Source of the DNA: a virus
Lineage: Duplodnaviria; Heunggongvirae; Uroviricota; Caudoviricetes
Length of the DNA: 44,292 nt
Strand: one strand, 5' to 3'
Virus record (IMG/VR): IMGVR_UViG_2660238147_000001
Numbering within the stretch: the stretch's first letter is position 1; the number at the start of each line of letters is the position of its first letter. The position numbers and the translations under genes were made by a program. Shown in pieces: positions 9,402-10,053 of the stretch. The notes below the pieces were generated by a model. The model was not told where the DNA came from, searched no databases, and worked only from the letters and a program-made list of their open reading frames with translations.

Positions 9402-9570
9402 TTTTGGTTCAACTAAATACAACGTCAGTTTTGAAGAATGGCATGAACTGTTAATGGACTATGCAGAGTTACGTGGTGGCAGTGCTGCTGATGCTGAAGC
9501 ATGGCGTGATGATTATGAAGCAGAAAAAACTCCGGTCGAAGCATATTGTGATGAGTGGGGCGATGAATGA
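9394..9570 (+). CDS. Small hypothetical protein (58 aa)
   Basis: Manually translated ORF (MADFGSTKYNVSFEEWHELLMDYAELRGGSAADAEAWRDDYEAEKTPVEAYCDEWGDE); start overlaps the upstream stop and its stop overlaps the next start (ATGA), suggesting translational coupling. Confidence 0.45.
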   Translation: MADFGSTKYNVSFEEWHELLMDYAELRGGSAADAEAWRDDYEAEKTPVEAYCDEWGDE

Positions 9571-9824
9571 GCGAGGTTAATTATCAGGAAGGGCATGAAA
9601 CGGCGGGGCAAGCAAAAACAGTGGCATGGCGATATCGCTACGTGAAAAAAAAGGCGTTACGGACTTTCAGGGGAAGTAGTGGTCTGGTGACTGGAAATAT
9701 GTACCGAAAAAAGAGGATTGTAACGACAGGCCGAACTATGAAATTCAGGCCTTATTCACTGCCCCGCCAGTCCCGGTTACATCAGAAGAACTGGTTAAAG
9801 CTGTGCACTTTTATGAACAACTAA
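9567..9824 (+). CDS. Hypothetical ORF, possibly frameshifted or a pseudogene
   Basis: 85-aa zero-frame ORF with a basic, low-complexity C-terminus; a more protein-like -1 frame is open from 9680 to 9883 with no start codon; A_AAA_AAG heptamer at 9707-9713 links the two frames. Confidence 0.3.
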   Translation: MSEVNYQEGHETAGQAKTVAWRYRYVKKKALRTFRGSSGLVTGNMYRKKRIVTTGRTMKFRPYSLPRQSRLHQKNWLKLCTFMNN

Positions 9825-10053
9825 AACGCGAAAATCCACCAGCATCCGGAAACCTGATTACAGATTCCCAGATAAGGCAATGAGCTACCTGGCGCAGAAC
9901 GGGCTGATAAGTATGGGGAATGTTTTACGATGAATATTTAGACTAAAGAGTTTGTAACGCTATGTAAGTGATTTTTTCTGGTTTAGATATTTATATATCC
10001 GGCCAAATTGAGGTGTGTTTAAATGTAATTGCACATTGATTGTAGGAGGAATA

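Follow-up and report, generated by a model that had tools for sequence, protein, structure and literature searches.

In E. coli dnaX, the programmed -1 frameshift site comprises the heptamer A_AAA_AAG together with an SD-like element on its 5' side and a stem-loop on its 3' side; at sites of this type the stimulatory RNA structure is expected about 5–9 nt past the heptamer, and the internal SD-like element about 10 nt ahead of it. Of all heptamers, A_AAA_AAG is intrinsically the one that slips most readily in E. coli, which has a single tRNA-Lys, and selection against it is only moderate (PMC5009743); in-phase copies have been reported for 68 E. coli genes (PMC9307594). A 'savior indel', accompanied by low-level compensatory frameshifting, has been described for the G-run of the herpesvirus thymidine kinase gene (PMC5009743). 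The protein families PHROG 660 and phrog_26213 comprise proteins of lambdoid prophages, often fused to ead/Ea22-like or DUF551 modules; no function has been assigned to PHROG 660.

Here we describe a locus that may be compared with these systems, located in a 44,292-nt stretch of DNA (IMG/VR record IMGVR_UViG_2660238147_000001, hereafter "the window"), which represents an E. coli lambdoid prophage. The initial annotation, made from the sequence alone, had proposed that an A_AAA_AAG heptamer links two reading frames at 9567–9883, either as a candidate -1 frameshift site or as part of a decayed gene. Comparison with related sequences supports the second part of this proposal and not the first: the region 9567–9933 is very probably (with a probability of about 0.93) a dead copy of a PHROG 660 prophage gene, in which the heptamer would be coincidental and not a recoding signal.

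Reading frames around the heptamer

An 85-aa ORF starts with ATG 9567, which overlaps the TGA of an upstream 58-aa gene (ATGA, 9567–9570), and ends at 9824. Within it, a run of exactly 8 A at 9645–9652 is followed by AAAAAAG at 9707–9713, which in the frame of the ATG reads CG[A AAA AAG], i.e. its X_XXY_YYZ phase is the one that a tandem -1 slip requires. In the -1 frame, an open stretch extends from 9680, directly after a TAG at 9677–9679, to the stop codon at 9881–9883; it reads WSGDWKYVPKKEDCNDRPNYEIQALF... and according to the ORF list has no usable start codon ahead of GTG 9803. The coordinates given in the initial annotation for the ORF, the 8-A run, the heptamer and the -1 frame are all correct. 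Its description of the zero-frame C-terminus as implausibly basic agrees with the composition of the tail beyond residue 28, which contains 14 K/R and no D/E, has a pI of 12, and looks like out-of-frame translation; likewise, the product of a -1 slip at the heptamer, given as ~105 aa, was computed to be 105 aa. AAAAAAG occurs 17 times in the window, compared to 8.9 occurrences expected, and its presence at this particular place is not more than chance.

According to one reading of these features, 9707–9713 is a programmed -1 frameshift site of the dnaX type, which yields a functional 105-aa protein beside the 85-aa product. In its favour, the heptamer is in phase, an open -1 frame encodes a protein-like sequence, and the tail of the zero frame resembles nonsense. 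However, neither a downstream structure nor an upstream SD-like element was found. A search for a downstream hairpin, suggested in the initial annotation, revealed a weak one only: folding of 9707–9830 gave a small hairpin that starts 14 nt past the heptamer and is no better than those obtained from shuffled sequences (dG of about -9 kcal/mol, z between -0.7 and -1.0). An Rfam scan of 9000–11000 (E≤1) identified sok near hokD and nothing at the heptamer, while the upstream segment 9690–9706, ACTGGAAATATGTACCG, contains no AGGAGG/AGGGAG-like motif, and no SD-like element is present 9–14 nt upstream. Besides, in the slipped product residues 29–48 are replaced by KALRTFRGSSGLVTGNMYRK, by which seven invariant residues are lost (D32, G40, D41, W42, K43, Y44 and T47); its junction peptide would read ...GNMYRKKEDCNDRPNYEIQALF..., with the junction at ...GNMYRKK/EDCNDRPNYEIQALF....

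Two other routes into the downstream frame were considered and rejected. Transcriptional slippage at the 8-A run could rescue the gene by the addition of one A, which restores the original frame but leads translation into TAG 9677. Re-initiation 3' of the TAG would have to make use of GTG 9803, the first start-type codon in that frame, and would give 26 aa only.

The ancestral gene and its lesions

The 571 bases around the 9567–9883 feature are 100% identical to E. coli SK1144, and in this record the RefSeq/PGAP annotation marks exactly the segment corresponding to 9567–9883 as a pseudogene, "frameshifted; internal stop". The same label is carried by seven other loci of the lineage that shares the TAG (hereafter the TAG lineage). 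Upstream of the pseudogene there are a DUF977 gene, a DUF7167 gene and the 58-aa gene; downstream there are hokD/sok, and then a DUF968 gene. The ancestral gene has its place between the replication module and hokD, in the syntenic order DUF7167 gene, 58-aa gene, X (intact or pseudogene), hokD, DUF968 gene.

Several features of the vicinity deserve to be recorded on their own account. The hok/sok type I toxin-antitoxin locus spans 10323–10647, with sok (Rfam RF01794, 106.7 bits) at 10323–10494 and the hokD ORF, so named in the identical RefSeq record, at 10492–10647. Three phage-borne tRNA genes, Met(CAT), Arg(TCG) and Arg(TCT), are located at 13784–14033, directly 3' of the ORF 12819–13640. 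In the phage record ON470612.1 (vB_EcoS-640R1, locus L014), the GenBank label "hornerin" is attached to an 85-aa ORF on the minus strand of the AT-rich spacer 3' of the pseudogene (871–1122 minus, corresponding to about 9960–10217 minus of the window); the name is almost certainly spurious and the ORF itself doubtful. The "hornerin" ORF is overlapped on the plus strand by a hydrophobic ORF of 72 aa (10015–10233) with a good SD (GGAGG).

Comparison with other prophages, another check named in the initial annotation, revealed a single-frame gene at the same position. Intact syntenic copies encode 171 aa in strain FFFEB2 (L004, WP_001289994.1), 119 aa in strain 439 (L003) and 104 aa in GTEN_97 (L006, WP_001529162.1), and the family was identified as PHROG 660 (E 6.8e-46 for the intact syntenic orthologue). 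With the 119-aa form as the query, a protein search found 1016 homologues (E≤1e-5); among these, the 120 that were listed are uninterrupted proteins of 109–209 aa, which have in common the core VAWRYRYVKKGVTD..GDWKYVPTKEDCNDRPNYEIQALF..., flanked by mosaic N- and C-termini. The Pfam scan of the intact orthologue identified no family, with the conserved core left uncovered, and the AlphaFold2 model of a 171-aa homologue (P0003), based on a 36-sequence alignment, was too poor for a fold search (mean pLDDT 55, pTM 0.39). The single-frame homologues argue against the programmed frameshift, and uninterrupted homologues are the very outcome by which, according to the initial annotation, it would be refuted in favour of a frameshift mutation or a sequencing error. 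In the intact homologues the A run comprises 6 A and one frame is maintained throughout, which bears out its alternative suggestion of a frameshift mutation at the 8-A run.

Four lesions, all on the plus strand, were mapped base by base in the DNA alignments with L004. The first is the expansion of the A run from 6 to 8 (+2) at 9645–9652 (intact GTG-AAAAAA-G versus GTG-AAAAAAAA-G in the window), which throws the downstream sequence into the -1 frame; the actual frameshift site is therefore the 8-A run. The second is the TAG at 9677–9679, a nonsense codon in the original frame at the place of CCG (Pro) or, in L006, CTG (Leu) of the intact alleles; it is also common to the 6-A alleles L002, L007, L010, L012 and L015, where it constitutes an in-frame stop. 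The third is an in-frame deletion of 90 nt between the direct repeats AATCC(A/G)CCAG (junction 9833–9842, from the alignment with L004 and L005), by which VETGAWKDAVDWVLREACCAAILGKADNPP was lost. The fourth, associated with the repeat CGG(C/A)AAC (junction 9843–9853, at about 9846/9847), is a deletion of 61 nt with respect to L004, or of 57 nt with respect to the L002-type alleles, which themselves have a separate 4-nt deletion; its effect is that the C-terminal remnant is moved into the third frame. Short direct repeats at deletion junctions are typical of slipped-strand or illegitimate recombination, and they are present at both junctions (9833–9853 in the window, ~1950–2110 in the L004 locus). 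L006 possesses both deletions and lacks the TAG, hence recombination or homoplasy must have been involved among the alleles.

The whole pseudogene, 9567–9933 on the plus strand, is a remnant of the PHROG 660 family distributed over three frames and collinear with the 171-aa gene of L004. The N-terminal remnant (9567–9644, original frame, MSEVNYQEGHETAGQAKTVAWRYRYV), which is ATGA-coupled to the 58-aa gene, is near-identical to the intact N-termini. The middle remnant (9680–9883, original frame, i.e. -1 with respect to the ATG), which reads from WSGDWKYVPKKEDCNDRPNYEIQALF to ENPPASGNLITDSQIRQ and a stop codon, aligns residue for residue with intact homologues, including WP_001529162.1. The C-terminal remnant (9847–9933, third frame, RKPDYRFPDKAMSYLAQNGLISMGNVLR, terminated by TGA 9931–9933) aligns with the C-terminal ...QPDCKLPEKAMDYLKRNGLISVEDVLR of the L004 protein. 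The phrog_660 profile matches these pieces in order, with positions 34–63 in frame 0 (E 0.006), 73–124 in the -1 frame (E 1.2e-16) and 167–193 in the third frame (E 9e-7); since the three pieces match consecutive segments of the profile, they represent one ancestral gene spread over three frames. The account given in the initial annotation is thereby extended in three respects: the TAG is a lesion in the original frame, the change of frame is located at the 8-A run, and the gene runs on in the third frame to 9933, past the previously given end at 9883.

The window sequence has also changed at positions that are invariant in the family (P18T, T47K, G74E and V85L), and so have the sister TAG alleles (E58Q and G40V). 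These substitutions, together with homopolymers that are polymorphic in length, appear consistent with relaxed constraint after disruption of the gene. Decay of the family is also observed elsewhere: in E. coli JCM 5491 (L005, locus 1678–2067) a 1-nt deletion, from GGGTAAAGCC to GGGTAAGCC, in an otherwise intact 171-aa form results in a 129-aa product, which PGAP accepts as a protein; here the family has decayed independently.

Alleles of the locus among E. coli genomes

At the site of the heptamer, ACAAAAG (Pro-Thr-Lys) is present in 4/4 intact alleles sequenced (L003–L006), the PTK tripeptide is found in 114 of the 120 listed homologues (out of 1016 in total), and T47 is invariant in the 36-sequence alignment. 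AAAAAAG at 9707–9713 is thus a by-product of the ACA to AAA substitution (Thr47 to Lys), and it was seen only on TAG-bearing alleles. In L002, L007, L010, L012 and L015 (phage PhiR42_1) it coexists with the ancestral 6-A run. The ATG frame of these 6-A TAG alleles reads CCG AAA AAA GAG, so that the heptamer is out of the slippery phase and lies 3' of an in-frame stop. Since AAAAAAG is already present on the 6-A TAG alleles, the most economical order places the TAG and the ACA to AAA substitution before the +2 insertion, i.e. the heptamer is older than the frameshift. In two strains of the 6-A TAG lineage, SCU-172 (L002) and RM14721 (L010), the adjoining DUF7167 gene has an internal stop as well, and in L002 an ISNCY transposase fragment is located downstream; this lineage therefore resides in a decaying, widely inherited cryptic prophage.

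Alleles were counted with exact 85–87-mers spanning both A runs and the TAG in 5,426 complete E. coli genomes. On the background of TAG and AAAAAAG, a first run of 6 A was counted in 487 records, of 7 A in 75 and of 8 A in 353; the counts were derived from BLAST identity bands, so that as many as about 16 partial matches may be contained in each, and homopolymer assembly errors possibly account for some of the 7-A calls. The TAG lineage accounts for about 1,220 of the 5,426 genomes and the closest intact lineage for about 559; the 8-A allele is found, too, among entries submitted as phages (L014). In L011 the second run is one A shorter, which converts the heptamer to AAAAAG. The frame relation between the two sites is not maintained, because the first run has 6, 7 or 8 A on the same background and L011 has lost an A of the heptamer; both homopolymers drift in length on a dead background. 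For the programmed frameshift these data are adverse throughout: the heptamer is missing from the intact alleles and out of phase in the 6-A alleles, both A runs vary in length, and the slip yields a protein in which the invariant motif is destroyed. We regard its probability as next to nil.

The counts also bear on the possibility that the 8-A run is a homopolymer sequencing or assembly error and that the real gene is intact. It is true that the lesion falls in an A run and that errors in homopolymer length are common in long-read assemblies. However, an identical 87-mer with 8 A is found in about 353 independent complete genomes as well as in phage records, and because of this recurrence a sequencing error is, for practical purposes, excluded; moreover, neither the TAG nor the two deletions can be explained as homopolymer artefacts.

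Could the 85-aa frame-0 ORF (9567–9824) then be a new functional small basic protein, born by the frameshift? It is coupled to the upstream gene by ATGA and is annotated as a CDS in one phage record, but its frame-0 tail has no homologues beyond identical alleles, the 6-A and 7-A alleles give rise to entirely different tails, and PGAP calls a pseudogene. Such an origin appears extremely improbable.

Or perhaps the insertion and the heptamer form a compensatory pair, in the manner of a "savior indel"? The +2 insertion would then have been selected, as it allows the TAG to be read past in the shifted frame, with a few per cent of ribosomes slipping back at the heptamer 28 nt 3' of the TAG, and low-level expression of the C-terminal two-thirds would be rescued. 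The arithmetic is correct, as +2 combined with a -1 slip amounts to +3 with the TAG bypassed; A_AAA_AAG slips appreciably in E. coli without assistance, compensatory frameshifting after an indel has been documented elsewhere (PMC5009743), and the 8-A allele is frequent. On the other hand, the rescued protein would be devoid of the invariant GDWKY motif and of the predicted β-strands of residues 21–39, it would be short of about 50 C-terminal residues as well, and 7-A derivatives exist on the same background. Furthermore, the 8-A allele is no more frequent than the 6-A TAG allele, and there is thus no sign of a need for rescue. We consider the compensatory pair very unlikely, and attach an equally slender chance to its corollary, namely that the annotated pseudogene yields, at a low level, a 105-aa protein, truncated and scrambled in part, which retains some function (a "pseudo-pseudogene").

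Returning to gene decay as the preferred explanation, the following course of events may be proposed. A nonsense mutation changed CCG/CTG to TAG at 9677–9679, and a single ACA to AAA substitution in the lineage already bearing the TAG would have created A_AAA_AAG. Replication slippage probably lengthened the 6-A run at 9645–9652 to 8 A, and only this later +2 insertion, if the order suggested by allele sharing is correct, would have brought the heptamer into slippery phase with the ATG frame. Two deletions, of 90 nt and 61 nt, presumably mediated by the short repeats, complete the set of lesions that scatter the original coding sequence over all three frames. Ribosomes starting from the ATGA-coupled ATG most likely make the 85-aa product, which ends in a basic nonsense tail. 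A minor part of them may slip spontaneously at the heptamer, and some trans-frame peptide is predicted to be made, because A_AAA_AAG is the most slip-prone heptamer and is in the right phase; such slippage would not be programmed, and no functional product is to be expected from it. The main counterpoint to decay is that the 8-A allele is common (353 of 5,426 complete genomes, in addition to the phage records). Neutral hitch-hiking on a successful prophage explains this frequency, with which some use of the locus would still be compatible.

The locus among known systems

The window does contain a real programmed -1 frameshift site, which is of the lambda G/GT tail-assembly-chaperone type. It belongs to the region 29869–30707, where the gpG ORF (PF06894, E 1e-54) contains G_GGA_AAG in phase close to its 3' end (30267–30273) and the gpT domain (PF06223) follows in the -1 frame. 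This site differs from the one at 9707 in being a separate locus with another heptamer, a conserved two-ORF architecture and Pfam support on both sides, none of which is found at 9707.

With dnaX the locus shares the identical heptamer in the correct phase and the same host species. The likeness ends there: an upstream SD-like element and a close, stable downstream stem-loop are both missing, homologues conserve neither the heptamer nor the two-frame layout, and a slip gives a scrambled protein instead of a defined alternative product. The resemblance to the "savior indel" consists in an indel and a nearby slip-prone run able to restore the frame at a low level, whereas here no evidence points to selection, invariant residues would be missing from the restored product, and the run does not keep its length.

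The practical value of the case is that of a useful negative, in which gene decay proved to lie behind an in-phase A_AAA_AAG that joins two protein-like frames of an E. coli prophage; a slippery heptamer between two open frames says nothing for recoding if homologues do not conserve it. The 6-, 7- and 8-A alleles of the pseudogene could also serve to mark the prophage lineage. Otherwise the locus is of little biological import; the pseudogene is ordinary and already labelled as such in existing annotation.

PHROG 660 is the ancestral family, to consecutive profile segments of which the three frame pieces correspond; the window copy is disrupted and internally deleted. From an ordinary bacterial or prophage pseudogene, i.e. 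one that has intact homologues and whose lesions (an indel in a homopolymer, a nonsense codon and deletions mediated by repeats) are polymorphic in the population, the locus differs in nothing essential; its sole curiosity is a slippery heptamer that lies in phase just past the lesions.
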